DNA of 64,000 nt, taken from NCBI GenBank assembly GCA_032718475.1, contig JAUCBJ010008829.1:62001-126000 (forward strand), written 5' to 3'. The DNA is from Nemertoderma westbladi. Taxonomy: Eukaryota > Animalia > Xenacoelomorpha. The notes below the pieces were generated by a model, which was not told the origin of the DNA, made no database searches, and saw only the letters and a list, made by a program, of their open reading frames with translations. The position numbers and the translations under genes were made by a program. Positions 4,797 through 59,814 of this stretch are shown here, piece after piece (position 1 is the first letter of the stretch; each line of letters begins with the position of its first letter).

Positions 4797-5069
4797 CGTG
4801 CTATTTGCTTATAATTTTAATTTTGAATAATTTAGAAATATATTGTAAAACTTAAATCTTCAGTAACCATCTATTTTTCACCTCGGGTAATAAAGAGCAA
4901 GAGACAATATTAAAGAAAGAAAATAAAAATTGTTGAAACAAACAGAGAATAACCATTACAAGAAAAGAAAGTGGTGGAAGATCGAAATATAAGAACGAAC
5001 AGTAGGTATAAAAAATGTGACTAAGAGGATATTCAAATGTTTATTAGGAAAATATTTTAGACCGAGCTG

Positions 5070-6080
5070 TTATAAATTTGAAAAAATTGACCTTTTTAGA
5101 GCAGATGAAAATTTGTTTTTTGATTTTTTTGAACGAATGTCGAGTGGCACCGAGTTCCAAATGACAGGACCTCGAAAACTCAGGGATCGTTGGGAAGAGC
5201 TAAGATTAAAAAGAGGAGTTGTGAAGTCGCCACGAACAGAAGAACGAGTATAGTAGTTGTGTACAGTAGATTGTTTAGTGAATAGTTTACCAAGAGTCGA
5301 AGAAGGACATATAGTTTCGGAGTTAATATCGTACATGAATTTTGCGACGGAGTGTTCGTATAGTTTGTTAATGGGTAGTATATTCAGTTTTTTGTAAAGC
5401 GGCAAGGAAGATGATCGATAGTGGGAAAATGTTATACAACGTAGGAGTTTATTAACTTTGATTCGTAAAGGTTTAAGTATTGTTGAATATGTATTACCCC
5501 ACAAGATAATTCCGTAGTTAATGTATGGATGTACTAAAGAAAAGTATAAGGTTTTAAGAATATTTAGAGGAAATACATGGCGCAGTTTGTAAAAAATTCC
5601 GGAAGATTTAGATATTTTTTTCAGAATATAATTAATGTGTGTTTTCCAGGTTAGTTTTGAATCGACCCATATCCCCAGTAATTTAGTGCTATCGGTTAAA
5701 TTTATTTGGGTGTTATCTATTTTTATTTGTGGTACAGAATTGGAGGTCGTTAGGGTACTGTTTGTAAAAATAGTATATTCCGTTTTTTTTAAATTTAGTA
5801 AAAGTTTGTTATCAGTTAACCAGTTATTTAGTTTTGAAAGTTCATTGTTCGTGCTGTTGAGTAGGTAGTGAATGTTAGAATGTGAGTTTAACAGAGTTGT
5901 ATCGTCAGCAAAGAGTGTCGAAAGTAACTTGGTAACATTCGGTAGGTCGTTGATAAAAATAAGAAAGAGAGTCGGGGACAGGACCGAACCTTGGGGGACA
6001 CCGCAAGACAGTGGTAGGAGGGAAGAGTTCTGACCATCTATTGTAACAAATTGATAGCGGTCGGTTAAAAATTTTTTAAA
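5070..6080 (-). pseudogene. C-terminal half of the LINE reverse transcriptase (N-terminal RT domains deleted)
   Basis: Motifs FLTDRYQFV, GVPQGSVLSPTLFLIFINDL, LFADDT, KLLGIWVDSKLTW, YGIILWG. Confidence 0.88.
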
Positions 6081-6123
6081 AGATTTAATGGGGTGCCTCT
6101 GACACCATAGGCCTCCAGCTTCT

Positions 6124-7308: not shown

Positions 7309-8669
7309 TGGCCGGGCCTACAATAGGACAGTTACTGGCAATAGTGCGAAAAATACCCTCGCCCCCTTCGATATAATCCTCGCCCCCTACGGTAATTACT
7401 GCAGTCCATGCGTGACCCACTATTCTTATAAAGCACAAACAGTTTACTGTAACACCATGCTGGGGGGAATCGTTCATACTCAAATATTACATTGAATATT
7501 GATAACATAAAAATTAACCAAGATCCTGGAAGTTTGCATATTAACCCTAAACTACTGCCCCAATACGCTTTATTAACCTTAATATCAGCTAGAGTATCAG
7601 CAAGCTCGCGTGGAGTAAACTTATCGTCTAGTTCCGGTATATACGGCGCCGATTCAAACTCAGGATCGATTCCAGCGCTTAGCGGAACGGCGCTTGTGGG
7701 ATTTAGTAGAGATTCAAAGTGAGCTTTAAACTGGCTAGGGGGCGGTTGGTCCTGAGCAAGATTATCGTTACCGTCGTACAGGTGGCCCTTCCAGTTTATT
7801 GCCCGCCATATCTGTTTAGGATCATTACCTTCGAGAATGGTTTCCCACCTAGTATATTTGTTGCGTTTATCGAATCTAGTGTTGCAGCCCAGATTGCAAG
7901 GTATTCTAGAACTGGAGGCGATAAGGTTATTTATATCCTTCAGCGTGGTATCTACATCCTCCGGCGATAGACCGACCAGGAGCAGAGGTTTGACTTCCTC
8001 CATTACATTGTGGAACTTGACACAATCGACGTTCGAGTTGTGTGTACTGTTCCCAAGACCAGATTTTGTTTGGTTACCGGAAACGCCCAGGCGTGCTGAG
8101 CAGTTCTTTAGGTCACTAACTGGGACCTGCAAACCGCAATCTACGTCGAGCAGTAGTGTGGCGTGGTCTGATCCGGTTACGGACTGGTCGACTTCCCAGC
8201 GAGAGATACAGTTTAGAATAGGCCCCTTCGCTACACCTATATTGATTTCTGAAACCCATTTATTTCCCATCCTGTATGAAAGATTTCCTCCTAACTGTTT
8301 ACCTTTGTATTCGAGATGGTTTAAAATAAGAGAATTTGTAGATTTACAGATAGCAATCACGTCCTTCCCGTGGCGGTTTACATCTCGGTCGACTATGTTT
8401 CTGTAAGGCACATCTAGGTGAGGCAAAGCGTCGCCAACTCGAGCGTTAAGATCCCTTATGGTTAGATCCCTTATAAGAATCATAAGATCCCTTATGATTC
8501 CTTAGGTTTCTGGTCCGCGGCGCAGTATACCGCGACGAGGTTTCTCAGCTGTTCCTTGTTCATTTTTCCAACTTGGCTGCTGGATAATACACATTTATCG
8601 TCAATACCTGTTAGGTTAGGATCAATATTTTGCTCCATCTTCGGTATAGCTGTATTATACAGTAGTTTT

Positions 8670-9400: not shown

Positions 9401-9492
9401 GTAAGAAAATAAGATTAGAGGTATAAATAAAACTGTCGGCCGACCGTACCTTAAAATAATTAATTATTTGCTGATCCATAAATACTGAAATA

Positions 9493-11539
9493 ATGTCGAC
9501 GACAGCAGTACAAATGGCCAGACGACGACATGGGGGATTCAAGGCGAATTTAACCGGAAAATGAATTCCTGCCGGTCCATCTTGGACAATCTACTACATA
9601 CCGATCCTAAACAGCGATCTCCAGATTCGGTGAGTCGGTTAAAACAAACTTACCAGGAATTAGAAACAGCCAGTCAAGCAGTAGAGGATTCCTTGATGGA
9701 ATTTTTAAAGTTTGATGATGAAGTTACCAGTGTAGGCCTACATGAAACTGAAGAATCTATATATAATTCTGTAGTCGATACAGTCGATCAAATTCGCCTG
9801 GAAGTAACCCAGATAGACAATGAATGTTTGCCGGTTGGCCTATTTCAGGCTGTAGACCCAAATACTGTACCGGTACCATCCATTCCAAAGTTAGAAAATG
9901 CACCAAGGCCAAGTGTAAAACAACCGCCAACTTTAGATGAAAATGTTACATTGAAACAGTTCTGCAACTGGCAAAAATCGTGGTGCAATTATTCCATAAT
10001 GATACATTTATCTAATCAACCTCGTAGAGAACAAGTTTCAGAATTTATGCAGTGTTGTTTGCCCTCTCTTTTAGCATTAATGGAACATGCTATTAACATT
10101 GGACTAACTAACTTAACTTTGGATGAAATATCCACAGAAATTGAAACATATTTACGAGAGAAACAAAATATTGCTTTTGATAGACTTCAGATGATTTTAT
10201 GCAGACAGCAGGAGGGTAAAAATTTTGATTCTTATTACACACCGCGTTGTGAAGCAGGTTTTACAGCAGGTTTAGAGTTGATGACTAAAGACGACTGGAT
10301 GTGTACACTAATCACTGTAGGCATACTAGACGAGGAAGTACGGCAAGATTTGTTGGGTAAACGCCCACATCTATCTCACACTGAAACAGTTAAATTTTGT
10401 CGTAGCGAGGAAGCAGCACGTCGGGATCGTGATCGCATAAGCAAACAACGGTTATCTATATCTACAATCGCTGCAAATAATCATTCACGTACCCCTTATA
10501 AGGAACACAGATTTTCAAGCCCTAACCAAGGACAGACTGGTAATTACAACCAAAGGCGAGGTCGCAGTGGCGGAAGCTGGGATTGCCGGGGGTACGGGCG
10601 TGGCAGCTGGGATCGTAGGGGGTATGGTAGTGGCAGGAGCTACTCAACCTCCAGATATAGACAACAACGAGGGGGAACAGATCATGGAAACTGCTTTAAA
10701 TGTGGTCATTTCAGACACAAAAATCGTGATGAGTGTCCCGCCAAGAATCAACAATGTGGGCGGTGCGGGAAAAATAACCACTTCGCCAGAGTCTGCCATA
10801 GTAATATGTCAAATAAGCAGGGAAATACGAGGGATTCAGAACAAACAACAAGGAATAATGCTGTATATGTGGCTACAGTCAATAACAGTTTGAGTTTACC
10901 CACTGTTTCCATGAGAATAACTGACCCCGTTACAAATGAGTTTCTCGCACAAGTTTCTGCTGTTCCTGATACTGGATCACAGCGAACCGTGGCAAACCGA
11001 GATTTAATTACTGCCATGGATCTAACAGTCGAAGACCTCATGGCAACATCTAAAGACAAACCCGTAAGTATTAATTGTAATATTATACATCAGATAGGCC
11101 AAATTAAACTGTGTATGGAATTATGTGGCCGGAAAATAATGGAAAATGTAGTGATTTGCAAGAATATTCCAGGTACTTATTTATCTTTGGATGCATGTTA
11201 GGGACTGGAAATTGTTTCTCATAATTTTCCCAACCCACCACCTTTACATAACGATACCGGTACAGTAATTTCTGCTGTAGAAACCGGATCAAATTATCCT
11301 TTAATGTCTGAACTGAAACGGAGAGAATTCTGCAATTCATTACCTAAACTACCCAGTGAATTGCAAAAAACAGAAATCCGCAATAAATTATTGGATTTAT
11401 ATAGTAGTGTTTTCGACACCGATGATAAATTAATGTCAATGTCGGGTCCAGAAATCGGAGAACCCATGAAAATTGAATTAATAGATAACGCAAAACCTTA
11501 TGCAATTCATGGGGCGAGACCAATTCCTTTTATCCATAG
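9493..11539 (+). pseudogene. gag: Gypsy G gag-protease and start of pol (frameshift and stops)
   Basis: Double knuckle CFKCG..H....CPAKNQQCGRCGKNNHFARVC and protease PDTGS. Continues to ARPIPF, where B1 is inserted. Confidence 0.88.
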
Positions 11540-12724
11540 TGTAAAAGCTTTTGCTGAATTGTCCGGTTATTTTTCCTTATTTTTCCCGTAAAATACTCTG
11601 TAGTTGGTTTACCAGGCATAAAAAGGCCGTGTCCTTGTTGTACTGGTGTTTTAGCGGACATAAAAGCTATTTCTTCTGTATTTGTACTTTAGAGGACATA
11701 ATCCGTAATTCTGTGACGTAAAAGCTCGATACTCTTGAAAACAGTGTCGCTACCATGACGACGGCTAGCAGCTGATATTGCCACGTCGACGTTTCTTTGT
11801 TCTCTCGTTGTTCAGGTTGACCAATCAGAGCGTTTGTTGTCTCTGTGTTGGAGGTATATACAGAAACTCAGTAGTTCAGTGTTATGTTTTTGCCCAGAGC
11901 CTAAGAACCGGCTTTTGGCACCTCCGTGTTTCAGTTTTTAGTCTTACACTAGTAGGTTTAATTATAAGGACATATATCCTTTAACTGCTAACTGATCATA
12001 CATACTGACTGCTGAAACATTGCAAACTCATAACAATCAGTGTTCAGTTGTTGTTTTATACTGCTATTTACTGTCAGTTCTTCATAATATGGTTGATGAA
12101 TTATTATATTTGGAATAACGATAAATAACCCCGAAACCCAATATTCTTGATATACCGAAGGTAAGAGAGAAAGGTTACAGATAAACGATTGTGACTTATG
12201 TTAAAGTGGTTTGAAGTGAATCTAATGTTATTTGATAGACCCTACATGAGTCAGTCTGTGTTCCTTTTATATGTGACTAAAATCAGTGAAGATTGGCAGA
12301 TTAGTGTGCAGTATTGTGCAGCATTGTGTATGAGTGAGTCTGTTAAAGAAGCAATTCCTAAAGAATGCGCCATATATGTGAATTATAATTAAGCCATATC
12401 GTTGTAAGTAGTTTAAGTCATAACTCTGTTTATATAGATAAAGCGCCACGTCCTAAAGGAACTGTTAATATTCCCGAAGGTGAATAATATTGTCAGAGAT
12501 TATATAATACTGTCAGTCGAATAATACATTAGGCTTACATAGCAATAAAATTAAACCGTCGAACCCAATCTCCCGGGAATATCCAGCGGGTGAATGATCG
12601 CGCACAGATTGGTTTCGACTAGTGTAGTGAATCAAATACTTGTCATAGACTAAAAACCGATTTAATATCTGGAAGACATCTTAATTTGGTGGGTTAAACT
12701 GCCAAAGGTCTGAAAGCGCGAACA
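11540..12724 (+). repeat. 5' LTR of B1
   Basis: TGTAAAAGC...GCGCGAACA. CCAAT box at ~11821. Confidence 0.95.
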
Positions 12725-12736
12725 TTAAAGGATATA
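12725..12736 (+). promoter_or_regulatory. Non-tRNA PBS of B1, complementary to its own LTR (11973-11984)
   Basis: TTAAAGGATATA is the exact reverse complement of TATATCCTTTAA. Confidence 0.75.
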
Positions 12737-12803
12737 GCTCCTTTATTGCAGTAAGCAATAAAGTCGAAAGTACCGGTCAACCGGTAAACCTGAACCGGTA
12801 CAT

Positions 12804-12917
12804 CTGTAGGTCAGTAGGCCCAACTGCCAGAACCGGTACTGCCGTAGGTCCGTAGGTCCAACTGCCAGAACCGGTACTTCTGTAGGTCCGTAGGCCTAAC
12901 TGTCCTAACCGGTACTT
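12804..12917 (+). repeat. 38-bp tandem repeat x3 in the B1 leader (also 59877-59991 in B3)
   Basis: Unit GCCGTAGGTCCGTAGGTCCAACTGCCAGAACCGGTACT. Confidence 0.9.
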
Positions 12918-13089
12918 CCCGTATAAGTACATTAGTATTATTCGATTTTGATAGTTATATACCGGTAGGCCTTAATAATTAATCAGGGACTGCAGCCCTG
13001 GTTTTTTATTGAGATTTTTACTTATTTCTGTCAAGTTTTATTTGTTTGTAGGCCAGTATTGAACAGAAGGCGTGTAAGCCTGATCAGAT

Positions 13090-13670
13090 TGTACAGACAA
13101 TTTGTAGGCTGAGCTGTTGTCTGATTGCTGTTAAGTCTGAACGGATTGCAGTGTGTGTAGATCACCTGTCCGATTAAGTACGGTTAGGAAGTAGGGGCAG
13201 CGAATGCTGTAAGGTAAACCCCCAATTAAAGAATAAGTCGTACTACTGGGTTAGAACGCATACTCCCTAATCATTTCGGAGTCTGCATGTCCTGTAGTTT
13301 ATTTAGGCTTGAGAGTAGTCTGCCATCGTTTAGTCTGTACTTTGTTTGTGTAAGTCTGTACGGGTAGCGTATAATTTTATTTAGATAATTTGTAGGCTGG
13401 ATAGTTGTCTGGCTGTTATTAGGTCTGAGCGGATTGCAGCGTGTGTAGATCACTTGTCCGATAAAGAACGGTTAGGAAGTAGGGGCAGCGAATGCTGTAA
13501 GGTAAACCCCCAATTAAAGAATAAGTCGTACTACTGGGTTAGAACGCATACTACCTAATTATTTCGGAGTCTACATATACCGTAGTTTGTTTAGGTTTGA
13601 TGGTAGTCTGTCAGTGTTCGGTCTGCATTTTGTTTGAGTAGTTTGTACGCGTTGCGTAATATTTATTATT
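13090..13670 (+). repeat. ~288-bp tandem duplication in the B-family leader (also ~26550-27125 and ~60170-60740)
   Basis: For example GGGGCAGCGAATGCTGTAAGGTAAACCCC at ~13194 and ~13482. Confidence 0.88.
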
Positions 13671-14975
13671 CAGAGTTTATGCGATTATCCGCAACATTCA
13701 TTCCCCAAGTTTGTTCCTACAATAATTGTGTTTGTTATACATACCGCTATAGTTAAATTAACCCCGGTACTACACGGGCTGCTTGGCGTAGGTAAAGACT
13801 GGTGATTTTGTGCATCGGTCACTCCAGCAGATGCCGTGGTTCTTTTGGCTGTTCAAGTATATTTAACTACAGATTATATGTTGTACAAGTACTCGTACCT
13901 AATTTAGGGTTTAGTGTACAGTACTTTCCGAAGTAATTAGTGTAGACATTATATTTGTGTTGTAAAGTGGTTGATAGGCACGTTCGATTAGCTCTATTAA
14001 CCTCTAGGTAGGAACACTCCGTGATACATAACGTAGAACCTATAGCGATACGGCTATAGGTCGTCAGGCGGTGGTATTTTCCTATCTGGACAACGCAGTG
14101 TATTTACTACTACTTATTATTTCAAATACCGTAGTACCCTGTCCGTTGTAATAACCAGATTTCTAACCCTTTGTTAGGCTGGTTTGTAGACTTCTTGTAA
14201 AATTACCCTAAAAAATTCGTATTTTGTGTTTTTGTAAATTTTTGTGTTTATTTAGAGATTGTAATCTCACCCGAATCGTACGTAATTTGTAGTATTAAGT
14301 AACTTAGGTAAATTAGAATTATTTGTTTTAGTGTCCTATAAGTAACACTTCACTGAAAGCGCACCGCTTTGTGTAGTGATTACTCCCCAGAAATAATAAC
14401 ATTTATTTCAACATTGACAAAACCCATTAAAACGGGTATATATATATTATAAATCAACTCAAACGATTTATAAATAGTAGGCCTACCATATAACCATTAG
14501 GTCTCAATATCAGTTGGACTACTGCTCAAATAACGGTAATAAAGTAAGTAGAGTAACCAAGTAACCCTAAAGTTCAGAAATTCAATTATTTAAAATAATT
14601 GATATACCGGTATTTACGATAGGCCTATTATCTTTATTTCTATAAATTTAGGTTGAAATTATACTGGTACTTTGTAATTAATTCTAGTCCAGAATTATAT
14701 ATACTACAAACTGTAAGCTGTATACCGGTATCCACGATAGGCCTATTATATATTTATATATATTTGTGCTAAAATTATACCGGTATTCGGTGATAAACCT
14801 AGTCTGTAATAATAGTTATATACTATAAGCATACCGGTATTCTAATATATTATATATATCACGCTACACTGAGTAGCAGTACCGGTAATTAATTACTAGG
14901 CTAGCAGTTAATACTGAGTTACTAGACTTGCTCAGACTGTAATACAGCAGTAGACATTCAACTGTATACATAAGC

Positions 14976-17900
14976 ATGTCTGACGCAAAGCAGAACCTGT
15001 CAGACAGTCTACTAGATACAACCGAGAGCGAAGGGACAGCGGAGGGGCCGCAAAAGAGAGATGCCATTGACATCTATCTGTCAGACTATCAACGCTTTGT
15101 AGGGGACAAAGAGTTGAGGAGAAGGCTGGAGGGGCTTAGCCCTAATAGTGAAGGAACCAAGCTTGTGCTGGACGCAATCGATGCGGAAATGTTAGCGGCG
15201 AACCAAGCTAAATTTGATGAACAACTCCGCATCATACGAGTCCAAGTAAAGAAAAAAGTTATAGAAGACAGAAAGAAAATAGCAGCAGCAGTGGCAGCTG
15301 CAGAAGCAGAAAGAAAAGCGACAGTGGCAGAAGCGGAAAGAAAGGCGGCAGTGGCAGCAGCCGAAGCGGAAAGAAAAGCGGCAGAGGCAGTGGCAGAAGC
15401 AGAACGGAGAGCGACTGAAGAAACCACCCAACTAGAATTGGAATACATTCAGGAGAATCAAGACTGCATAAATAAACAGTTAACAGCTAGTAATATGCAG
15501 ATGATGAATCGATCTACTCCCAAAAGACAGGGATATACATCATCTGAGGAAGGCGATACCACCGATACTGAAGGCAAAAGAAATAGATCTCACCTAAGCA
15601 GACGTAAAAGAACATCCTACCGTCAGAAATTGCCTGATTTGCCTCCAGCTGTTAGAAGGCAACTAAATAACACCAACTTAGAGAGTACAGAACCCACAGA
15701 CCAAATAATTACAATAGAAAGACTCCCTACTATAGTAGATGAGCCTGAAATAAGTAGGCCTGTTCTTGAAATCACCCCTTCGGTAATAGATACACCTATG
15801 CTCCCTGAAGCTACCTATAAATTCCCTCGGCATAGCACTAAGCTACCTGTGCCCCGTAGAACTGCCCAGGAGACAGTTCAGGTCCTGGACCCCGAGCGAA
15901 ATATTCCAAATTTGTCGCCCGTTGTCCCTCGTCTGCCCACTACGACGTTGGCGGATCCCGTTTCGGCGGTTGATTGGGTAGACGAGAGACGGCGGGGGAT
16001 GGATATTCTCCTCGGAGAGATGAAGGAGAATCGGATACGCTCCTCCCAACAGGTCCGAGAGTTGGAAGGGACTGTCCAACATTTAAAGGGAACAGTGAGG
16101 GAAAGTAAGTTAGAGTTGCAAGAAGTGCAGCAAAATATCGCGCTAGAGCGCGATAAATTAGTAAATTTACAAAAGGGTATACCACCACCCCCTGTAACAA
16201 TGTGTCAACCCGTTAGGTCTGAAGTATCTCATGCGCAAGGTGTGGAGCCTACACGCATTTATACTGCTAGCGAAGTAGAAACTCCTATAATGAACCCTAT
16301 TAAGGGTAATTATATACCTGTTGATAATGACATTCCCTATAGAACTGATCATAATCCGAGAAATTTATATACCGATAACTCGATATTAAATAACACGATG
16401 GCCCAAGAAAGTTTTACGCGTCAAATGGCTAGAACCGAAGCCCGGCAAGCGGTAAAGGTGGGAGAGATCGTCAAGTTCAATGGAGATGAGATGAAATGGT
16501 TACCTTTTAATGAATATTATAAAGATAACATACAGAACTCTGTACTATCTAACGGAGAGAAACTTAGATTCCTCATCGAATGTTTGGAAGGACCTCCCAA
16601 GTCAATGGCGTTAAAATTTATTGGACATCCAGATGGATTAAGACAAGTTTGGGATACACTAAACATCAGGTATGGTAATAGGACTAACATAGCTAGGTAT
16701 TTATATGCGAAATTAATGGCGCCCCGAAAGTTTCTTAGCAGCGGGATTATAGAGTTTTCCGATGAGATTCAGGAGATCTGTAGACAACTAGATTGGTTAG
16801 GTAAGTCTCATGAATACCAGAATTCTATGGTTGTAGGAGCCTTAGCATCTACTTTGCCCAAGGGTGGAGTAGGTACACGCTGGGACAAGAAGGTGTTATA
16901 TATGATGGAACAACAACGACGAGACCCTACCATGACTGATCTCATGTCATTCTTAGATAGAGAAGTGAAATTACAGCTCCTAAGGCAGTCCAGAGAGAAG
17001 ACATTGGAAAACAAGGTAAGTGAGAAACCCGTTTCTAGGAGAAGGGTAACACCAGTATGTTATACCGACGACGGTGAAAGCCAAACTTCTCAAGGAGAGG
17101 ACAGCGGGAAAGACACTGACAGATCTTATTATGTCAATAAAATGCCTAAAGATCAGGTAAGTAAATCCGAGTCTCGACCCAATGACAGAAGGGAACCGGT
17201 ACAAAAAACCCTTCCTACGTCTCCTAAAAGAATTCAGGTGAGAAAGCCCGAGGAAAGAACAAGTGTGCACCACATAGCACAGGTTAAAGTAAGTAACATC
17301 AAGCCGAAATGTGTGCTGTGCGACGGGCCCCACCGTTTAAATGCGTGTGATAAATTCCTGAGGAAATCACTAAAGGATAGACGTGAAGTCATGTGGGATA
17401 AGCGGTTGTGTTATAATTGCCTCAGACGAGGACACCAACGGCGAACCTGTTACTCTGACGCAAGGTGTGCAAAGTGCGGCGCAAAACATCATATCTTGTT
17501 GCACACGGAATTCGAACGAAACAGCCCGAGTCAGGTAAGTGAGTCCGAACTACATGTCCAATTCAGTGATGTGAACGACACTGACCAAAGTTCTGAGTGG
17601 GAAGGATTCTATACGGACGAATTCTCCGATGAAAACGAATCCTGTTACTTAATAAACACCACCGCAGTGTATCGAGCACTCATGTATGAGAAAGACACAG
17701 ACAGCGACCTCACCCTAACTACTTCAGATCAACAACCATCTTGGAAAGCGCCAACTTCCAATATAGGAATCCGAGAATTTCCTGTAGTCCAGTTACGGGT
17801 CCACGGACCTCAGAAGAGCTATATAGTGAACGCCCTCCTGGACTCCGGTAGCACAGGAACATTCATCGATAAAGAACTAGCCGAAGTCATCTTTGCTGGA

Positions 17901-19052
17901 CAACCCAAGTTCCGAACCAAGCTAAACATGTCAGGGATCATGCAGGTTTGGAATTCTACTGTAGCTGCCGACTATTATATAGGTGAGTTGTCCACTCCAC
18001 AGGATAAACTAGGAGAATACAGTATGAGGTCAGTCAAAATGGTGGCAATAAAGAACTTCGCTACCACCCAAGTGGAACCTTATAATTGGGACGAAGATGA
18101 TCATGCCCAACGACTTAACATTCCTAGATTCGACACCGATTATCCTGGAGTACAAATATTAATCGGTCAAAACGCGCATGAGGCGCTGGAGACATTGGAG
18201 AAACGACCTGCTCAACCGCAACCACTTCAGACCTATGCGGTAAGAACTAGAGTAGGTTGGTACCTTACTGGACCTTCCCGAAGAACGCTCAGAGAAAGAC
18301 TGCTTCAAGATCGCGTCTGCCAGGTGAGTGAATGGGAAGATGATACTAGTGAGGGAGACGACCCAACTGAGGGAACACCACACTCCTCAGATAATGACAA
18401 TCTTAGCTCCAATGTAGATCAATGGAGATATTGCCCCAAGAAGTTTAATCCAACTGACATCGCTTCCAGAGGAGCAACACCTCAAGAACTGACAGATACT
18501 ACAGACCGGTTAGGTGAACCCGACTTCCTGAGTAAGGAGGATGAATGGTCTCCCCATCTTACTCCGACTGAGATTAGACCAGCCAAGGGAGCGGAGAAAG
18601 TTAAACCTAAAACCCGGACGGGTGGAGCGGAGTTATTTGAACCCGGGATAGATCTGTCGGTATTACATATTGCCAGGGACGACGCCGTGGATCTGGACCT
18701 CCCCACCGCGAGTGGATCCTTCATGAAGATCAGAGGGAGCGATTGGAGCTCTGGAACATCAGACGTCTCGCAGGGACTCTTACCTCTCCTGCAGGGAGCG
18801 ACGGACCACTATAGCTCCTGGAATCGGCTTTGTAACGCCGTCATATACTTTGAGCGATGTTTCTATCGTCACTATTCCAGGACGAAGAGGAAACCTGGAA
18901 TTGTATTCGGGATGCAGCGACTCAATCACCCAGTCGGTCGTTTGTGTTTACCGGAAGGGAATGGAGGACTCTCCGGAAACTGTGGAAGGCAAGATTCTCT
19001 TCCCACGACCACCTCCCTAATCCTTCAAACATCTAGGGACTCCATAACGTAG
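14976..19052 (+). CDS. gag: B1 Gag-protease polyprotein with in-frame remnants of the post-RNase H region and integrase tail
   Basis: BEL gag (KFNG...W..F, EKLRFLIECLEG), knuckles CVLC..PH...C, CYNCL..GH...C and CAKC..KHH.LLH, protease LLDSGS. No YMDD, RH core or IN core. Confidence 0.92.
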   Translation: MSDAKQNLSDSLLDTTESEGTAEGPQKRDAIDIYLSDYQRFVGDKELRRRLEGLSPNSEGTKLVLDAIDAEMLAANQAKFDEQLRIIRVQVKKKVIEDRKKIAAAVAAAEAERKATVAEAERKAAVAAAEAERKAAEAVAEAERRATEETTQLELEYIQENQDCINKQLTASNMQMMNRSTPKRQGYTSSEEGDTTDTEGKRNRSHLSRRKRTSYRQKLPDLPPAVRRQLNNTNLESTEPTDQIITIERLPTIVDEPEISRPVLEITPSVIDTPMLPEATYKFPRHSTKLPVPRRTAQETVQVLDPERNIPNLSPVVPRLPTTTLADPVSAVDWVDERRRGMDILLGEMKENRIRSSQQVRELEGTVQHLKGTVRESKLELQEVQQNIALERDKLVNLQKGIPPPPVTMCQPVRSEVSHAQGVEPTRIYTASEVETPIMNPIKGNYIPVDNDIPYRTDHNPRNLYTDNSILNNTMAQESFTRQMARTEARQAVKVGEIVKFNGDEMKWLPFNEYYKDNIQNSVLSNGEKLRFLIECLEGPPKSMALKFIGHPDGLRQVWDTLNIRYGNRTNIARYLYAKLMAPRKFLSSGIIEFSDEIQEICRQLDWLGKSHEYQNSMVVGALASTLPKGGVGTRWDKKVLYMMEQQRRDPTMTDLMSFLDREVKLQLLRQSREKTLENKVSEKPVSRRRVTPVCYTDDGESQTSQGEDSGKDTDRSYYVNKMPKDQVSKSESRPNDRREPVQKTLPTSPKRIQVRKPEERTSVHHIAQVKVSNIKPKCVLCDGPHRLNACDKFLRKSLKDRREVMWDKRLCYNCLRRGHQRRTCYSDARCAKCGAKHHILLHTEFERNSPSQVSESELHVQFSDVNDTDQSSEWEGFYTDEFSDENESCYLINTTAVYRALMYEKDTDSDLTLTTSDQQPSWKAPTSNIGIREFPVVQLRVHGPQKSYIVNALLDSGSTGTFIDKELAEVIFAGQPKFRTKLNMSGIMQVWNSTVAADYYIGELSTPQDKLGEYSMRSVKMVAIKNFATTQVEPYNWDEDDHAQRLNIPRFDTDYPGVQILIGQNAHEALETLEKRPAQPQPLQTYAVRTRVGWYLTGPSRRTLRERLLQDRVCQVSEWEDDTSEGDDPTEGTPHSSDNDNLSSNVDQWRYCPKKFNPTDIASRGATPQELTDTTDRLGEPDFLSKEDEWSPHLTPTEIRPAKGAEKVKPKTRTGGAELFEPGIDLSVLHIARDDAVDLDLPTASGSFMKIRGSDWSSGTSDVSQGLLPLLQGATDHYSSWNRLCNAVIYFERCFYRHYSRTKRKPGIVFGMQRLNHPVGRLCLPEGNGGLSGNCGRQDSLPTTTSLILQTSRDSIT

Positions 19053-22000: not shown

Positions 22001-22063
22001 TTATGTTTTAGAAACTGTGATTTTTATATTTTATAGACTGAAAATCCCATTTTCTGGGAGCGG

Positions 22064-23248
22064 TGTAAAAGCTTTTGCTGAATTGTCCGGTTATTTTTCC
22101 TTATTTTTCCCGTAAAATACTCTGTAGTTGGTTTACCAGGCATAAAAAGGCCGTGTCCTTGCTGTACTGGTGTTTTAGCGGACATAAAAGCTATTTCTTC
22201 TGTATTTGTACTTTAGAGGACATAATCCGTAATTCTGTGACGTAAAAGCTCGATACTCTTGAAAACAGTGTCGCTACCATGACGACGGCTAGCAGCTGAT
22301 ATTGCCACGTCGACGTTTCTTTGTTCTCTCGTTGTTCAGGTTGACCAATCAGAGCGTTTGTTGTCTCTGTGTTGGAGGTATATACAGAAACTCAGTAGTT
22401 CAGTGTTATGTTTTTGCCCAGAGCCTAAGAACCGGCTTTTGGCACCTCCGTGTTTCAGTTTTTAGTCTTACACTAGTAGGTTTAATTATAAGGACATATA
22501 TCCTTTAACTGCTAACTGATCATACATACTGACTGCTGAAACATTGCAAACTCATAACAATCAGTGTTCAGTTGTTGTTTTATACTGCTATTTACTGTCA
22601 GTTCTTCATAATATGGTTGATGAATTATTATATTTGGAATAACGATAAATAACCCCGAAACCCAATATTCTTGATATACCGAAGGTAAGAGAGAAAGGTT
22701 ACAGATAAACGATTGTGACTTATGTTAAAGTGGTTTGAAGTGAATCTAATGTTATTTGATAGACCCTACATGAGTCAGTCTGTGTTCCTTTTATATGTGA
22801 CTAAAATCAGTGAAGATTGGCAGATTAGTGTGCAGTATTGTGCAGCATTGTGTATGAGTGAGTCTGTTAAAGAAGCAATTCCTAAAGAATGCGCCATATA
22901 TGTGAATTATAATTAAGCCATATCGTTGTGAGTAGTTTAAGTCATAACTCTGTTTATATAGATAAAGCGCCACGTCCTAAAGGAACTGTTAATATTCCCG
23001 AAGGTGAATAATATTGTCAGAGATTATATAATACTGTCAGTCGAATAATACATTAGGCTTACATAGCAATAAAATTAAACCGTCGAACCCAATCTCCCGG
23101 GAATATCCAGCGGGTGAATGATCGCGCACAGATTGGTTTCGACTAGTGTAGTGAATCAAATACTTGTCATAGACTAAAAACCGATTTAATATCTGGAAGA
23201 CATCTTAATTTGGTGGGTTAAACTGCCAAAGGTCTGAAAGCGCGAACA
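22064..23248 (+). repeat. 3' LTR of B1
   Basis: Near-identical to 11540-12724, preceded by the short purine tract GGGAGCGG. Confidence 0.95.
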
Positions 23249-23253
23249 CATAG

Positions 23254-24993: not shown

Positions 24994-26201
24994 TGTAAAA
25001 GCTTTTGCGGAATTGCCCGGTTATTTTTCCTTATTTTTCCCGTAAAATACTCTGTAGTTGGTTTAGTAGGCGTAAGAGGCCGTATTATTGCTGTATCGGT
25101 GTTTTTTAGAGGACCTAAGAGCTATTTCTTCCGTATGAGTACTTTGGAAGACATGGTTGGTGATTCTATGGCAATTCTATGAAGCAAAATAGCTAGATCC
25201 TCTTGAAACAGTAGTTACTATGACGACGGTTAACAGCTGAGCTGTATAGGTGTCAATTTTCTTTGTTCTACGGTGTCTCTTAGTTCAGTCAACCAATCAG
25301 AGCATTTTTACTGCTCTTGTACAGAAATTTCCTAGAAATCACGCAATGCTTTATGGGCAGTGTTTACATTCAGTCCTGAGCCCAAGAAAGAACGGCTTTT
25401 GGAATATCTGTGTTTTCAGCTCTTTAGCCCAACACTAGTAGGCTTAATTATAGGGACATATATTCGTTATCTTACTGACCTAACTCAACTGGGCAATGCA
25501 TATATCTTATCGTACATACTTTTATATCGTTATACTGCTATTTACTGTCGGTTATTCACTATATATGGTTGATGAAATATTATATTTGGAATAACGAGAA
25601 ATAATCACGAAACCCCAATATTCTTGATATACCGAAGGTAAGAGAGACCGGTTACATATAACGATTGCGACTTATGTTAAAGTGGTTTGAAGTGAATCTA
25701 ATGTTATTTGATAGACCCTACATGAGTCGGTCTGTGTTCCTTTTATATGTGACTAAAATTAGTGAAGATCGGCAGATTGGTGTGCAGTATTGTGCAGCAT
25801 TGTTTATGAGTGAGACTGATAACGAAGCATTTCCTAAAGAATGCGCCATATATGTGAATTATAACTAAGCCATATCGTTGTGTGTAGTTTAAGTCATAAC
25901 TCTGTTTATATAGATAGAACGCCACGTCCTAAAGGAACTGTTAATATTCCCCAAGGTGAATAATATTTGTCAGAGATTATATAATACGATCAGTCGAATA
26001 ATACAGTAGGCTTACATAGCAATACGATTAAGCCGTCGAACCCAATCTCCCGGGTATATCCAGCGGGTGAATGATCGCGCATAGATTGGTTTCGACTAGT
26101 GTAGTGAATCAAATATTTGTCATAGGCTAAAAGCGATTTATTATCTAGAAGATATCCTAATTTGGCGGGTTAAACTGCCAAAGGTCTTAAAAGCGCGAAC
26201 A
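24994..26201 (+). repeat. 5' LTR of B2
   Basis: TGTAAAAGC...GCGCGAACA. Confidence 0.95.
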
Positions 26202-26214
26202 ATAACGGATATAT
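26202..26214 (+). promoter_or_regulatory. Non-tRNA PBS of B2, complementary to its LTR (25458-25470; 51804-51816)
   Basis: ATAACGGATATAT pairs with ATATATCCGTTAT (3' LTR, exact) and ATATATTCGTTAT (5' LTR, one G-U). Confidence 0.75.
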
Positions 26215-42316: not shown

Positions 42317-43917
42317 TGTTCGCGGTATTTCAATTTTCCATAACGCGAGTTGAATATTTTTGTATTTATTTAAAATTGATTATTCCGATATTACTACTGG
42401 GTGCGGGACCATGGGTTTTGGGCACATTCAATAAACTGGGGGCGATTTATGGGCGAACTTTGGGGCAACTTACAGGGTACGGGAATAATTTCATAGTTAT
42501 AAGGGCCAGGGGGGGATGGAAAATGCAAGCAGTATTCAGGTTAGCCTGAGTACTATTAGGCCCTGGCCAACTTCCTGCTGCCTGTAGGGGTGGATTTGGT
42601 AATGCGCCAGGCCTAAAGGACAAGGACTGCCCTTAGCGGTCCCTGGCCAACAGCAGCCATTACGAGACTGAAAAGAACTCGGACCGCTGACTGCTTGTGT
42701 CAGGGATTTGCGACGGGCACCGACGGCCCCTTAGTAGCCAAGCCGTTCTGGTTCTCGATGATCGAACCCCGGGGTTCGTGAGGGGTGGAGCGGACACGCG
42801 AACGGGTGGCCAACTAACGACTGCCCCCTGACCTAAGCCGTACTGGTTCTCGATGACCGATCCCTTCGGGGTTCGCGAGGGGTGGGACGGACATGCGAAA
42901 GGGCTGGCCACAGGACGGGTTTGACGAGAACTGCCCTTAGCGGTCTCTGGTCAACGGCAGCTACTACGAGACTGAAAAGAACTCGGAACGCTGACTGCTT
43001 GTACTGGGATTTGCGACGGGAACCGACGACAGACCCCTTAGCCAAGCCGTACTGGTTCTCGATGATCGTTCCCTTCGGGGTTCGTGAGGGGTGGAACGGA
43101 CACGCGATGGGGTCGAAAGACAAAGGACTAGACTCGACTAGACTCTACTGGCCTACCGACTGTTCGGAGCAGTTTCTCGGCTGCCGAAGCGACTACGAGC
43201 CTGAAACGGACTCGGAAAGCCTAGGTGGTTGGGTTTCTGTGATGAACCGACGGACCCCTAGCCAAGCCGTTCTGGTTCTCGATGATCGAACCCTTCGGGG
43301 TTCGTGAGGGGTGGAACGGACACGCGAACGGGTCCACCGACACGACAGACTCCTAGCCAAGCCGTACTGGTTCTCGATGACCGAACCCTTCGGGGTTCGA
43401 GAGGGGTGGTACGGATACGCGACAGAGTCTACCGACTGGACCGACCCTTAGCCAAGCCGTGCTGGTTCTCGATGATCGTTCCCTTCGGGGTTCGTGAGGG
43501 GTGGAACGGACACGCGACAGGGTCGACCGACACCGACACTACGGCACTAAGACTGGGACCGAGGGAAAATCTGGGGAACATTAGGTAGGCTAAAATTCTG
43601 AGCGAATAGTGGGTTATTAAATAATATACCGTAGGGATTTCTATTATCGTGTATAATTATTTGGTGTATATTGATTTGGGGAAGCCCAAAATTATTCTTA
43701 ATCAAGTTTCAATGATGTTGAACGGGTTTCAACTATAGGAAGTTACATTAAAGAGTATATCCAACTAATGCAGCTTTTTATCAACCGCAAACTTGCATCT
43801 CAGAAAATATTCCCTCCCCACAATCAATATCCGGTGACTGGCCGGGGCTCGGTGGTCTGTTAAGTCACGTCTCCAGCATCGGCGTTTTTCCCCCCTGGTG
43901 TAGGGATAACGGCAACA
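42317..43917 (+). repeat. 3' LTR of C (1.6 kb)
   Basis: TGTTCGCGG...GGCAACA. Confidence 0.93.
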
Positions 43918-43922
43918 AACGC

Positions 43923-46900
43923 CCTCCTGGACTCCGGTAGCACAGGAACATTCATCGATAAAGATCTAGCCGAGGACATCTTTGCTGGACAACCCAAGTT
44001 CCGAACCAAGCTAAAAATGTCAGGAATCATGCAGGTTTGGAAATCTACTGTAGCTGCCGACTATTATGTAGGTGCGTTGTCCACTCCACAGGATAAACTA
44101 GGAGAACACAGTATAAGGTCAGTAAAAATGGTAGCAATAAAGAACTTCGCTACCACCCAAGTGGAACCTTATAATTGGGATGAAGATGATCATGCCCAAC
44201 AACTTAACATCCCTAGATTAGACACCGATTATCCTGGAGTACAAATATTAATCGGTCAAAACACGCATGAGGCGCTGGAGACATTGGAGAAACGACCTGC
44301 TCAACCGCAACCACTTCAGACCTATGCGGTAAGAACTAGAGTAGGTTGGTACCTTACTGGACCTTCCCGTAGAACGCTCAGAGAAAGACTACCTCAAGAT
44401 CGCGTCTGCCAAGTGAGTGAATGGGAAGATGATACTAGTGAGGGAGACGATCCAACTGAGGGAACTCCATACTCCTCAGATAACGACGACGTCCACCAAC
44501 TCTTCGACGAGGAGAATACCATTGATCTCCTTAAGGAAAACGAGACTTGGCAAAACCAAGTGAACCTATGTCAACTCCTCCATCCATCAGAGCGAGAAGC
44601 GTATAATGACGAGCTAAATGACGTCATTGAACGTTATAATGCCAAGACTCGGGATGAACATGCCGTACGATTCTTTACGCAAGAGGCGGTAGAGCCCAAT
44701 TCCTACGATAAGGCCTTAGCGGTGGAAGAGGAAAGGGCCAAGCAGATCCAAGAGACAACTACACGTTTCCTCAAAGATCAAGGTAGGTATGAAATCGGTC
44801 TACCTTTCCGCAAGAGAGAACCGAAGTTCATCAATAACAGACCCTTGGCGGAGAAAAGAATCGCGCAACTCCATCGACGCCTTACGGCAAATTCTTCAGC
44901 TAAAGAAATGTATCAAACACAGCTGAAGAAATTTATCAGCAAGGGATATGCGGAGCGAGTACCGGAAGAAACACCTATAACTGAAAGAACGTATTACTTA
45001 ACTCACCATTACGTTCCCAAACCCGGTAAACCACATGAAGTGAGAGTAGTGTTTGATGGCTCCGCTCTCTACATGGGCCAATCCCTTAATTCTGAATTGT
45101 TACCCGGACCCAACTTACTTCAATCCTTGTTGGGAATTCTTTTAAGATTGAGACAATACTCAATCGCTTTCGCCTCAGATATAGAAGGCATGTTATTACA
45201 AGTCAAGGTGCTGGATAGGGATCGAGATAGCCTACGATTTCTGTGGTGGCCCGAAGGAGACCTCAACCAGAAACCGGTGGAGTACTGGATGACCATCCAG
45301 GCCTTTGGGATAATCTCAAGCCCTTCCAACGCCTGTTCAGTGGTGCGTACCACTGCGGATGACAACCGTGAAGCCTTCTCTAAGGAAGTGATTGACAACA
45401 TCAAGCGGGACATATACATGGACGATAATCTGAAGTCCCTTCCATCAGTTGAAGAAGCCATTGAGGTCAGTAAAGGAACGGTAGAGTGCTTAAAAAAGGG
45501 TGGATTTCGATTAACTAAATTCACCAGCAACTCCCGTGAGTTTCTGGAGTCAATCCCTGTAGAAGATCGAGGAGCGAAAGACCTAGATTTAATCAAGGAT
45601 GATCTTCCAGAAACCAAGACACTCGGCTTGAAATAGGACACAGAGAGAGATATCCTGTTTTTCCAGCTAAAACAGCGAGATAATCCAGTTCGAACCAAAC
45701 GGATTTGTTTAAGTATACTGAGCACTTATTTCGATCCATTGGGATTTATAAGCCCAGTTATATTGATTGCTCGGAGTTTGGTACAACAAATGTGGCTTGA
45801 AAACCACTCATGGGACGATCCACTTAAGGGAGAATTATTAAAGAAGTGGATGAAATGGGAAGATTCTCTGCCGGCCATCGAGGATTTTATAATTTCCCGT
45901 TCATATTTTGGTCATGTTCTCCCTACGTATTCCTATCAACTCCATGTGTTTGGAGATGCCAGCGATATGGGAATAGGTATAGTAGCCTACCTAAGAGTGG
46001 AAACTCCGGATGGAATCAAAGTCTCCTTGGTTACCTCTAAGGCATTAATCAACAATAAGTTGAAAGTTCCTCGAGCGGAGTTAAAGGCGGCTCTATACGC
46101 TACAGCCATCGGCCGGAATGTAACCGAACAGATCGATTATCCATTAGAGAAAACTGTCTATTGGACCGACGCTTTACTCGTGTTAGAGTATATAACCAAT
46201 GAAGTCTGTCAGTTCAGCGTCTTCGTTACCAACAGAGTAGCCATCATACATAGTCGCACGACGATGGATCAATGGAGACATTGCCCCGGAACGATTAATC
46301 CAGCAGACATCGCCTCCAGGGGAGCGACTCCACATGAATTGGTAAATACTCCAGAATGGTTAGGTGGACCCGACTTCCTCTACAAAGAAGAAGAAGAATG
46401 GCCTCCCCATCTTACAACCGCAGAGATTAGATAGGCCAAGGGAGCGGAGAAAGTTAAACCTAAAACTCGAGTGAGTAAATCGAAGTTATTTAAACCTACG
46501 GTCGATCTATCTGTATTACTTACTTCCGGAGATGACGCTTTGGATCAGAAGCCCACAGCCACAAATAAAGAGGTATTGGAAATCCGTGACAAGGATTGGA
46601 AATCTGGAATACCAGACATCTCGCAAGGACTCTCACCTCTACTTCAGAGAGCGATACATCACTACAGTTCCTGGAATCGGCTCTGTAAGGCCGTCACATA
46701 TTTAAAACGATGCTTTCATCATCATTACTCCAGGACGAAGACCAATAGTGATGCCGTTGTTAAAGATCTTCCCAAATACAAGATATCCGACAGGTTTCTA
46801 AAGGAGAAGATCAGTTACCAGGAGCATGAGGAAACCAACAAGCAGATACTGAGACTCCTACAATGCTATGAAGATTCCGATAAGTATTTCCTGTTGTTGA

Positions 46901-48273
46901 GAAATCCGCAGATGCGCTTAAGGGATCGTTTCTCTAGTACAATGATAGATGGGTTAATACGCGTTGGAGGACGGCTAACTAACGCGCCATTATCCTTTGA
47001 CACTAAGTTTCCCATACTCATTAGAAATCTTGACATACAAATCAAGATGATTGTAGACGTCCATAGCAAACTGTACCATGCTGGTAGAGAACGAGTTCTT
47101 AGCGAAATTCGAACTCGCTACTATTTTTATAAACCCTGTAGAGCTCTGAACCAAGTTCTTAGGAACTGCATACCCTGTAGGAAAGCATTCAGTAGGCCTT
47201 TAACACAGCGAGAGGCAGAATTACCTAGGGAACGAGTAAGCTTCTATGAACCACCCTTTACTAATACCGGTGTGGATTTATTTGGCCCCATTGAAGTATA
47301 TCGTGCCAGGACTATAGTCAAGAGATGGTGTGTCATCTTCGTTTGTATGACTTGTAGAGCTATCCATCTCGATATGGTGAACGATCTATCTACCAACAGC
47401 TTCGTGTTAAGTTTACGACGACAGATCGCTCGCTTCGGAACTAGTAACACGATGAGATCGGATAAGGGAACGAACTTCATTGGCGCCAACAACGAAATTC
47501 AAGCTTACGTAAAGGACTGGAACCAAAGACAGGTGGACGACCAACTAAAGGTGACAGCGTCTAGCTGGACCTTCAACGCCGCCGACGCCCCTTGGTGGGG
47601 AGGAAGTTGGGAGAGATTGATTAGGAGCGTGAAGACTGCATTCCACTTTATAGTGCCGTGTCGCGCTTATCTCACCGACGAACTCTTGCGGACGTTAATG
47701 GAGGAAATCGCCGCCTATCTCAACGAAAGACCGCTTATGCCAGTCTCTTCGAGTCCTGATTCCCTGGAAGCGCTAACACCCGCGCACTTTCTACTGAAGA
47801 AACCCATAGCCATGCTCCCACGATCGGAGATCACAGACGGAGACGAGTACTGCCGTCAAACTTGGCAACTTATGCAGTTGCTATCCCGTCGTTTCGCTGA
47901 CCATTTCGAGAAACATTATCTGCCCACTCTACAACTTCGAACTAAGTGGTTTGCGCAGCAAGAAAACGTCAGCGCTGGAGACATGGTGCTTATTGTGGAC
48001 CCCGATCTTCCACGTAAGCGATGGCAAACAGGTCGTATCATTGAGACACATATCTCGAGCGATGGTTTGGTGCGATCGGTAGAACTCGTCGTCATGCGGC
48101 GTAACTTCAAGAAACCGGGGATATTCTTTGAGACGCAACAGCTCAATCGCCCAGTGGGTCGTTTATGTTTACTGGAAAGAGACAGAGAACTCTCCGGAAA
48201 CTATGGAAGGCAAGATACTCTTCCCACGACCACCTCCCTAATTCAACCAACATCTAGGGGCTCCCCAACATAA
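43923..48273 (+). pseudogene. pol: B2 pol (PR-RT-RH-IN) with two in-frame stops (45634-45636, 46432-46434); start of PR at 35302-35371
   Basis: LLDSGS, VRVVFDGS, SDIEGM, YMDD, FDPLG, HVFGDAS, WTDA, NPADIASRG, TGVDLFGP, SDKGTNF, GGSWERL. Confidence 0.95.
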
Positions 48274-51339: not shown

Positions 51340-52548
51340 TGTAAAAGCTTTTGCGGAATTGCCCGGTTATTTTTCCTTATTTTTCCCGTAAAATACTTTG
51401 TAGTTGGTTTAGTAGGCGTAAGAGGCCATATTATTGCTGTATCGGTGTTTTTTAGAGGACCTAAGAGCTATTTCTTCCGTATGTGTACTTTGGAAGACAT
51501 GGTTGGTGATTCTATGGCAATTCTATGACGCAAAATAGCTAGATCCTCTTGAAACAGTAGTTACTATGACGACGGTTAACAGCTGAGCTGTATACGTGTC
51601 AATTTTCTTTGTTCTACGGTGTCTCTTAGTTCAGTCAACCAATCAGAGCGTTTTTACTGCTCTTGTACAGAAATTTCCTAGAAATCACGCAATGCTTTAT
51701 GGGCAGTGTTTACATTCAGTCCTGAGCCCAAGAAAGAACGGCTTTTGGAATATCTGTGTTTTCAGCTCTTTAGCCCAACACTAGTAGGCTTAATTATAGG
51801 GACATATATCCGTTATCTTACTGACCTAACTCAACTGGGCAATGCATATATCTTATCGTACATACTTTTATATCGTTATACTGCTATTTACTGTCGGTTA
51901 TTCACTATATATGGTTGATGAAATATTATATTTGGAATAACGAGAAATAATCACGAAACCCCAATATTCTTGATATACCGAAGGTAAGAGAGACCGGTTA
52001 CATATAACGATTGCGACTTATGTTAAAGTGGTTTGAAGTGAATCTAATGTTATTTGATAGACCCTACATGAGTCGGTCTGTGTTCCTTTTATATGTGACT
52101 AAAATTAGTGAAGATCGGCAGATTGGTGTGCAGTATTGTGCAGCATTGTTTATGAGTGAGACTGATAACGAAGCATTTCCTAAAGAATGCGCCATATATG
52201 TGAATTATAACTAAGCCATATCGTTGTGTGTAGTTTAAGTCATAACTCTGTTTATATAGATAGAACGCCACGTCCTAAAGGAACTGTTAATATTCCCCGA
52301 AGGTGAATAATATTTGTCAGAGATTATATAATACGATCAGTCGAATAATACAGTAGGCTTACATAGCAATACGATTAAGCCGTCGAACCCAATCTCCCGG
52401 GTATATCAAGCGGGTGAATGATCACGCATAGATTGGTTTCGACTAGTGTAGTGAATCAAATATTTGTCATAGGCTAAAAGCGATTTATTATCTAGAAGAC
52501 ATCCTAATTTGGCGGGTTAAACTGCCAAAGGTCTTAAAAGCGCGAACA
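51340..52548 (+). repeat. 3' LTR of B2
   Basis: Matches 24994-26201, preceded by GGGAGCGG. Confidence 0.95.
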
Positions 52549-58532: not shown

Positions 58533-59803
58533 TGTAAAAGCTTCTGTGGGATATAACTAGTCCTTCGCTCCGCAATCCAGTTTTCCCCCGTGCGCTCAAA
58601 TACTCTAAAACCTACTGTAAAAGCGTTTACGGATATAATCCGTTCCCTGGCCCGCAAAGTACCGTATAGGTGTTTTTAACGGACATAAAAGTAATTCTTC
58701 TGGATGTATACTTTAGCGGACATAGCAAGGTACAAAAACCCGCCATACGGCATTTTCTCTATCACCATATCGTGGGAAGGATTCAGATTACGACATCTAC
58801 CAGCTGACTACCAGCTGACGTGGAAGGGGCCATTGGACACATGGTTTCTTTGTTCCGCTTAACAGCCAATCAGGGTGATGTTTACTTTTACCTGTGAAGA
58901 CATTCTACGGATGTGGCGGATGTCAGTGTTGGTTTTATTCTAGGCCACAAGAACGGCTCTGGAATCACTTGTTTTCAGACTTTATAAGAAACATTAGTAG
59001 GCTTAGATTATAGAGTGTATAACTGTTATCATACCATATCACAAGTCACACATATTAACAATCATACCGGTCCAAATCATACCAATCATACGGGACATAC
59101 TTATCATATCTTAACCTACCGTCTTACTGCTTTTACTGTTTGTAATTATTTGTGTCAGTTAGTTGGATGTTATTAGTTGAAGAATATCGAGAAATAACCC
59201 AAATTTCCCAATCTTCTTGATACACTACAGGTTAGAGAGACAGGTTACATAACGATTGCGACTTATATTATTGTGGTTTGTAATGAATCTAATGCTATTT
59301 GATAGCCACTACGAGTCAATTGCTGTTCTCTTTATGTGTGATCAAAGTCAGTAACTGTCGGCAAACCAGTGAGCAGTATTGTGCGGTACCGGTAGTGTGT
59401 ATGATTGTGGTTGATAACTAAGCATTTCCTAAAGAATGCGTCTCATACGTGAATTCTAAGCCATATCGTTGTGTTTAGTATAAGTCATAGCTTTGTTTAC
59501 ATAGATAGAGCGCCACGTCCTAAAGGAACTGCTAATATTTCCCGAAAGTGAATAATATTTGTCAGAGATTATATATTGGTGATCAATCGAATAATACATG
59601 TAGGCTTCACTGCAATAAATCTAAGCATACGAATCCAGTCTCCCGGGTGTAACCATCGGGTGAATGAACGCGCACAGGCTGGCTTCGGCTAATGTTGTGT
59701 TTATTTTGTATTAAATCTTGTCATCTTATAAAGTCAATTTACCAACTAAAGACATATAAATTTTGGCAGGTTAAACTGCTAAAGGTCTCCAAAAGCGCGT
59801 ACA

Positions 59804-59814
59804 ATAACAGTTAT
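59804..59814 (+). promoter_or_regulatory. Non-tRNA PBS of B3, complementary to its LTR (59019-59029)
   Basis: ATAACAGTTAT pairs with ATAACTGTTAT. Confidence 0.7.

Follow-up and report, generated by a model that had tools for sequence, protein, structure and literature searches.

BEL/Pao retrotransposons are, as a rule, primed for reverse transcription by a tRNA. Three related BEL/Pao copies (B1, B2 and B3) in a 64,000-nt stretch of the Nemertoderma westbladi genome (contig JAUCBJ010008829.1, positions 62,001 to 126,000; hereafter the window) raise the question of what primes an element in which no tRNA-type site adjoins the LTR. The copies have the following parts:

11540..12724, + strand: 5' LTR of B1 (TG...CA, 1185 nt; self-comparison and alignment), with the target-site duplication (TSD) CATAG at 11535-11539 and 23249-23253
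14943..19052, + strand: open frame of B1, coding for Gag (DUF1759, zinc knuckles) and protease, followed by fused remnants; deletions have removed RT, the integrase core and most of RNase H
22044..22063, + strand: polypurine tract region of B1, adjoining the 3' LTR and identical in B2 (51320-51339)
22064..23248, + strand: 3' LTR of B1 (self-comparison and alignment), with 2 differences from the 5' LTR
24994..26201, + strand: 5' LTR of B2 (self-comparison and alignment), TSD TACTG
43864..48273, + strand: pol of B2, with protease, RT (YMDD), RNase H (Peptidase_A17 match) and integrase (H2C2, DUF5641), and in-frame stops at 45634-45636 and 46432-46434
51340..52548, + strand: 3' LTR of B2, 99.1% alike to the B2 5' LTR
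58533..59803, + strand: 5' LTR of B3 (alignment), its only LTR in the window, the 3' end of B3 lying beyond it

The assignment to BEL/Pao made in the original prediction is borne out by protein domains, pol order and RT likeness to BEL/Pao polyproteins, all of which agree. A profile search of the elements returned matches to DUF1759, Peptidase_A17, Integrase_H2C2 and DUF5641; they have a Gag with DUF1759 and Cys-His knuckles, a Pao-type RNase H, and DUF5641 behind the integrase. Catalytic motifs of both RT and RNase H are found in B2, and its pol order, protease-RT-RNase H-integrase, is that of BEL/Pao. The relatives listed for the B2 protease-RT stretch are BEL/Pao-type polyproteins, the best of them 32-45% identical; PF05380 is present in 118 of the 120 matches listed, and the remaining two carry either PF03564 with PF05585 or PF03564. 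B1 and B2 also have the TG...CA LTRs and 5-bp TSDs of BEL/Pao elements, and thus share LTR termini, TSD length, and domain content and order with canonical members (Belpaoviridae). As had been reported, their TSDs are clean and their LTRs near-identical (CATAG with 2 differences in B1; TACTG with 99.1% in B2). No intact autonomous copy exists among B1-B3 within the window. Since B1 is devoid of RT and the integrase core, it will have moved in trans, copied by the enzymes of another family member.

Directly behind the 5' LTR of each copy, at the position of a primer binding site (PBS), lies a short segment complementary to the LTR itself:

11973..11984, + strand: LTR site of B1, exact reverse complement of the PBS and candidate self-primer
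12725..12736, + strand: PBS position of B1 (sequence match), 12 nt complementary to 11973-11984, no TGG
25458..25470, + strand: LTR site of B2, whose pairing with the PBS includes one G-U; its 3' LTR counterpart (51804-51816) pairs perfectly
26202..26214, + strand: PBS position of B2 (sequence match), 13 nt
59019..59029, + strand: LTR site of B3 (sequence match)
59804..59814, + strand: PBS position of B3 (sequence match), 11 nt

All 7 of the segments reported earlier for these sites are in place and are exact reverse complements, except for the one G-U in the B2 5' LTR, and an LTR alignment puts the pairing partner at one homologous place in B1, B2 and B3, as had been proposed. The reported absence of a TGG-type site also held: the first 120 nt behind the LTR of B1 and of B3 contain no TGG, and the first in B2 is at +57, so that the TGG near the LTR end typical of a tRNA-type PBS is lacking in B1-B3. 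In 3 of 3 copies the helix starts at the first base after the terminal CA (offset 0) and does not extend into the LTR. Each LTR site closes a conserved block on its 3' side, just before a hypervariable stretch, and joints at 11983/11987 in DNA runs fall just at the end of the B1 site.

For each LTR, we took the longest perfect complement starting 0-3 nt past the LTR end and compared it with 1000 dinucleotide shuffles. The 12-nt match of B1 was equaled in 0 of 1000 shuffles for the 5' LTR and 1 of 1000 for the 3' LTR, the 13-nt match of B2 to its own 3' LTR in none of 1000, and the 11-nt match of B3 in 7 of 1000. Against its own 5' LTR, B2 yields 6 nt without G-U (684 of 1000 shuffles) and 13 nt with it. 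Non-self combinations of PBS and LTR among the three copies (n=6) give only 5-8 nt. Elsewhere inside the three elements, 5 of 9252, 2 of 5674 and 5 of 4174 positions match the own LTR over 11 nt, and the B3 11-mer is nearly palindromic. Pairing beyond the perfect core was not above chance (63, 240 and 928 of 1000). These results confirm PBS-LTR complementarity in the three copies as a real feature, specific to each element's own LTR. The covariation originally described is present insofar as pairing is kept while 4 of 11 shared positions are changed on both sides, but compensatory selection is not established: if each cycle renews the PBS by copying the primer, double-sided changes would be expected without selection on the pairs.

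We extended the comparison to distant relatives collected by RT alignment, comprising 80 metagenome and 20 genome-collection loci that are 34-48% identical. An LTR end was called in 18 of these 100 loci, at 38-48% RT identity, with two wrong calls, L027 (end not reached) and L079 (repeat not TG...CA), counted as misses. Under a strict test (Watson-Crick pairs only, at least 10 nt, offset of at most 8, canonical splice signals), 11 of the 18 have a perfect 10-15 nt PBS match that runs across a GT-AG junction within their own LTR (L003, L022, L029, L030, L039, L043, L086, L087, L089, L093 and L099, the last with its 5' LTR). One, L084, has a contiguous 11-nt match, and one, L028, has a TGG-type site. 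The strict test found no match in the other five (L012, L062, L081, L027 and L079); among these, a revised LTR end gives L012 an 11-nt match, L062 reaches 9 nt, and L081 pairs at 10 of 11 positions. In a control of 462 cross pairs among 22 elements, a single pair reached 10 nt by junction and none did contiguously. Close kin among the positives (L022/L023, L086/L087, L016/L089) mean that these counts overstate independence. Outside the count, and uncontrolled, 11 more loci have a known LTR start but an uncalled end, and 8 of them show junction matches at a plausible first CA. Eleven additional stretches, one of which repeated L089, contributed zero new self-pairing cases; scans of metagenome and genome contigs for LTR-end patterns returned 0 matches, and viral contigs yielded no relatives.

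The same analysis does detect TGG-type sites where these are present, in L028 and in the more distant L127 and L128, which come from one bin and have roughly called ends; B1-B3 thus differ from these canonical representatives in the absence of such a site. Judged from sequence, PBS self-pairing is common in this BEL/Pao group, and the B elements appear as its intron-less form. A junction-made primer was also considered for B1-B3 and rejected, the best junction matches being 0, 0 and 6 nt against contiguous matches of 12, 13 and 11 nt. Both L003 and L012 have a TATA box ~140-170 nt ahead of the donor, which makes it likely that their transcripts include the pairing segment internally rather than at the 5' end. 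From this pattern it follows that the primer of the B elements need not be the RNA 5' end. The PBS of B2 and that of B3 both start with ATAAC (26202-26206 and 59804-59808). Most junction-type relatives have a PBS that starts with GT after a 0-5 nt spacer, a hint of a cut-site preference.

BEL/Pao elements were also encountered in bacterial metagenome bins (L081-L100, some with both LTRs, and G001, with 16 RT matches); they are probably animal host DNA. L034 and L035 are two copies with identical RT that lie 12276 nt apart on one contig and may represent a tandem pair or an assembly repeat.

The original prediction held that self-priming arose independently in the B lineage. We placed B2 in an RT and RNase H tree (LG+G4; 33 of 51 rows, 18 dropped) and in a quick tree; the trees stand without a gypsy or copia outgroup and without the named Sinbad, Suzu, Sparrow, Surcouf, Pao, Tas, Flow and Dan references. 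B2 groups with BEL/Pao polyproteins as a long branch (best identity 44%), inside a group (95/98) that contains all junction-type loci and L028. In the 33-row tree it stands beside the junction elements (52/99), and in the quick tree outside the junction clade. Because the two trees place B2 differently, we claim neither a shared nor an independent origin; independence is not established, the trait being common in the wider group. The contiguous L084 is sister to the junction-type L086 (100/98) within a junction-type clade (100/98), and this nesting indicates that the contiguous state can arise by intron loss. The B elements may represent another such loss or retain an intron-less ancestral form, and B1-B3 provide an intron-less comparison for whether the junction form is ancestral or derived.

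A conserved CCAAT box had been taken to make a transcription start near the LTR site plausible:

11821..11828, + strand: CCAATCAG box of B1, kept in B2 (25293) and B3 (58866)

The box is present 152-165 nt upstream of the site, but alone it does not place the RNA start there. No TATA box lies at the expected distance (-30) from the site in B2 or B3, and none is common to all three. The pairing site itself opens with a TATA-like word, TATAT or TATAAC, and a TCAG that is either initiator-like or acceptor-like lies at about -42 to -48 from it. Downstream of the B1 site, a donor-like word (12158-12166) and an acceptor-like word (12489-12496) are kept in all three LTRs (25635/25966 in B2; 59228/59558 in B3). 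They may mark an intron, or they may give rise to a spliced mRNA lacking both the PBS and the 2.2-kb leader. Within the leader, 12762-13674 contains 38-nt tandem repeats and a 288-nt duplication, partly kept in B2 and B3.

RNA folding bears on where transcripts might begin. When the RNA starts at the site, whole-leader folding predicts the helix between site and PBS with mean pair probabilities of 0.91 (B1), 0.62 (B2, with the G-U) and 0.92 (B3); adding 25-120 nt of the natural upstream sequence lowers the probability to 0.0 in all three. The predicted helix tolerates 10 added upstream bases in B1 and 15 in B3, and is lost with 6 in B2. Shuffled 40-nt extensions push it below 0.05 in 1 of 7 trials for B1 and in 4 of 7 each for B2 and B3. 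Folding across ~800 nt is unreliable, and since shuffled extensions often remove the helix too, these predictions offer at most a weak hint that the RNA of B1 and B3 starts ~10-15 nt or less from the site. Loss of the helix with upstream sequence also implies that an inner primer would pair only with assistance. Two predicted local structures flank the PBS:

12595..12603, + strand: 5' arm of a predicted U5 stem (folding), pairing with the terminal 9 nt of the LTR (12716-12724); one pair is T-A in B1 and B2 and A-T in B3
12741..12763, + strand: predicted hairpin directly 3' of the B1 PBS, kept in B3 and present in altered form in B2

The U5 arm lies ~120 nt upstream of the LTR end, and the predicted stem, with one double-sided change (in B3), closes at that end and so adjoins the PBS. 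Its six core pairs have probabilities of 0.92-0.98 in B1 and ~0.6 in B2, and form in B3 only in the local fold; the last 140 nt have z scores of -1.9 to -2.5.

We consider it likely, from these sequence features, that the B elements prime reverse transcription with an RNA segment derived from their own LTR and cut at its 3' end, rather than with a tRNA. Self-priming, the core of the original prediction, remains the best reading and gains strength from the relatives and the U5 stem, but neither its exact Tf1-like form nor its independence is established. In the scheme we propose, the genomic RNA would start at or upstream of the LTR site and fold back over ~740 nt, with the LTR segment covering the PBS, helped by the U5 stem beside it. 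RNase H supplied by an intact family member would cut after the last paired base, which makes the predicted cut positions exact and testable (behind 11984 in B1, 25470 in B2 and 59029 in B3), and RT would extend from the newly made 3' end into U5. The minus strand would be copied up to the cut and then jump to the 3' LTR; the 3' copy would therefore be the source of the primer segment and of all LTR sequence upstream of it. Plus-strand synthesis would then re-copy the PBS from the primer, keeping both sides matched. Because sequence upstream of the cut would come from the 3' LTR copy, the relatives could keep their LTR intron, and because only one cut would be needed, the primer may carry a 5' tail. 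We narrowly favor a primer that is the RNA 5' end, as in Tf1, over an inner segment, as in the junction-type relatives. For the group at large, we lean slightly toward a scenario in which a large animal BEL/Pao branch swapped its tRNA primer for its own RNA, mostly assembled by splicing in the 5' leader, with B1-B3 as intron-less members in which the transcription start would free the primer.

To our knowledge, Tf1 is the only element with experimentally demonstrated self-priming; for its gypsy relatives and one plant copia lineage it has been predicted. Passages in two reports describe the Tf1/sushi group (Tf1/Tf2 of Schizosaccharomyces pombe, Tj1, Tosmo1-3 and Tcry1) as Ty3/gypsy chromoviruses without a tRNA PBS, in which ~11 nt next to the 5' LTR pair with part of the LTR (PMC7175516, PMC4600332). 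The scheme outlined there for Tf1 comprises fold-back onto the PBS, an RNase H cut and RT extension (PMC7175516, bioRxiv 2022.12.06.519325), with a duplex beside the PBS (bioRxiv 2022.12.06.519325); passages of another report note that PBS sequence is often found at the end of Tf1 cDNA and that the first five bases of the Tf1 PBS are ATAAC (PMC11042837). Like these elements, B1-B3 have a PBS that adjoins the LTR, is perfectly complementary to the own LTR and has a predicted duplex beside it. The ATAAC start shared between the Tf1 PBS and those of B2 and B3 is probably convergence or chance. Several distinctions are also apparent. The B elements carry BEL/Pao domains and had no chromodomain match in a profile search, their loop is ~740 nt, and the primer as RNA 5' end is only a candidate. 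Compared with the three-duplex "pretzel" of Tf1, they have a predicted U5 stem on the 5' side of the PBS and a local hairpin on its 3' side, where Tf1 has LTR pairing. Moreover, in most of their relatives, unlike in Tf1, the pairing segment spans a predicted splice junction.

Self-priming has also been predicted from PBS-LTR complementarity for plant Tcn1 (gypsy) and TAR/Houba/Osr-1 (copia), according to passages of PMC6317226. This is the same inference that we draw for the B elements, but in plant hosts and other superfamilies; it indicates that self-priming arose more than once and makes the present case less surprising. Fungal GalEa copia elements (with a Conserved Hairpin Site) and bivalve TRIMs are described in the relevant passages as lacking a tRNA PBS and having a hairpin close behind the LTR, and the authors of those studies detected no LTR complement of the site (PMC5445492, PMC6934838). 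The B elements resemble them in the hairpin and differ in having an LTR complement. In the BEL/Pao papers searched by term, the passages returned make no mention of tRNA priming or of a PBS, and a tRNA-complementary PBS does not serve there to delimit the family. The literature covered included PMC8220671, PMC554778, PMC6238403 and PMC3601003, whereas PMC8556966 and PMC3118150 gave no passage by term; no report of BEL/Pao self-priming was found in it, though BEL/Pao survey supplements, subscription papers or Repbase entries might hold one.

The pairing could have a role other than priming. It might form a structural long-range helix used in packaging, dimer formation or a translation switch, with priming left to a tRNA half or a downstream site. 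Long retroelement leaders do contain long-range helices, and the predicted U5 stem and the hairpin behind the PBS point to a structured region. Within the window, neither tRNA genes (ARAGORN) nor Rfam matches were found. A helix of this kind would nevertheless not account for paired bases that lie exactly at the LTR end, where a primer must sit, and stop at the CA in each of the three copies, or for a match of primer length (10-15 nt) in every positive relative. The letters of the site also vary freely between families, which a tRNA-matched site would forbid, and we regard this alternative as improbable. A match that is a mere by-product, either of a TATA-like AT-rich promoter word meeting an AT-rich leader or of a one-off inverted copy inherited by the three elements, is very improbable and largely excluded. 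The TATAT or TATAAC that opens the site, the near-palindrome in B3, and the 2-5 other internal positions per element that match the own LTR over 11 nt would fit such an origin. Against it stand the offset of 0 and the same LTR place in all three copies, the four double-sided changes, the short cross pairs (5-8 nt), the rarity of equal matches in shuffles (0-7 of 1000), and the parallel pattern in distant relatives.

A further alternative retains an LTR-sequence primer but has it act in trans, as an abortive RNA, a small RNA or part of a second packaged genome, without fold-back of the same molecule. Such a primer would leave an identical sequence signature, and both the 740-nt loop, which far exceeds the usual span of local folding, and the disappearance of the predicted cis helix when upstream sequence is included would be accommodated by it. 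The cis helix is, however, the predicted best fold if the RNA starts near the site, and Tf1 is described as a cis fold-back in the pertinent passages of PMC7175516. We consider priming in trans quite improbable and favor self-priming by fold-back. If correct, this reading would extend self-priming to a third LTR superfamily, and in animals, with a primer built by splicing as a further form of it. It would explain why PBS-based annotation misses such elements, which may in addition be freed from dependence on tRNA supply and from silencing by tRNA fragments.

Along the B1 LTR, summed contig depth (runs X1 and X3), which is not a measure of copy number, is ~3-4x lower over 11550-12060 than over 12060-12720. 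This contrast is in line with a subfamily-specific U3 and a shared R-U5. Contigs aligned to this LTR show strong variant rows at 12597 and 12671 in one alignment that are missing from another. Among the rows listed, none falls at the pairing site or the PBS, a blank from which we draw nothing, as both places are close to the ends of the second alignment.

The window holds other retroelements, two of them nested inside B2:

~31970-35370: LINE in B2 (endonuclease and RT, with stops), relatives 37-53% identical
35372-43347: BEL element C in B2 (LTRs 91% alike), with an integrase frame
2280-7317 (- strand), 9489-11201 (+ strand), 23371-24051 (+ strand) and 52796-57185 (- strand): further retroelement remnants

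At its called LTR end, element C shows neither self-pairing (6 nt; 445 of 1000 shuffles) nor a clear TGG site. It encodes an extra 874-aa frame (39527-42151) that has no Pfam match up to E = 1 and that may resemble 3'-5' exonucleases. Among the remnants are two gag-protease pieces, one from BEL and one of another type, together with LINE pieces and an RT fragment.
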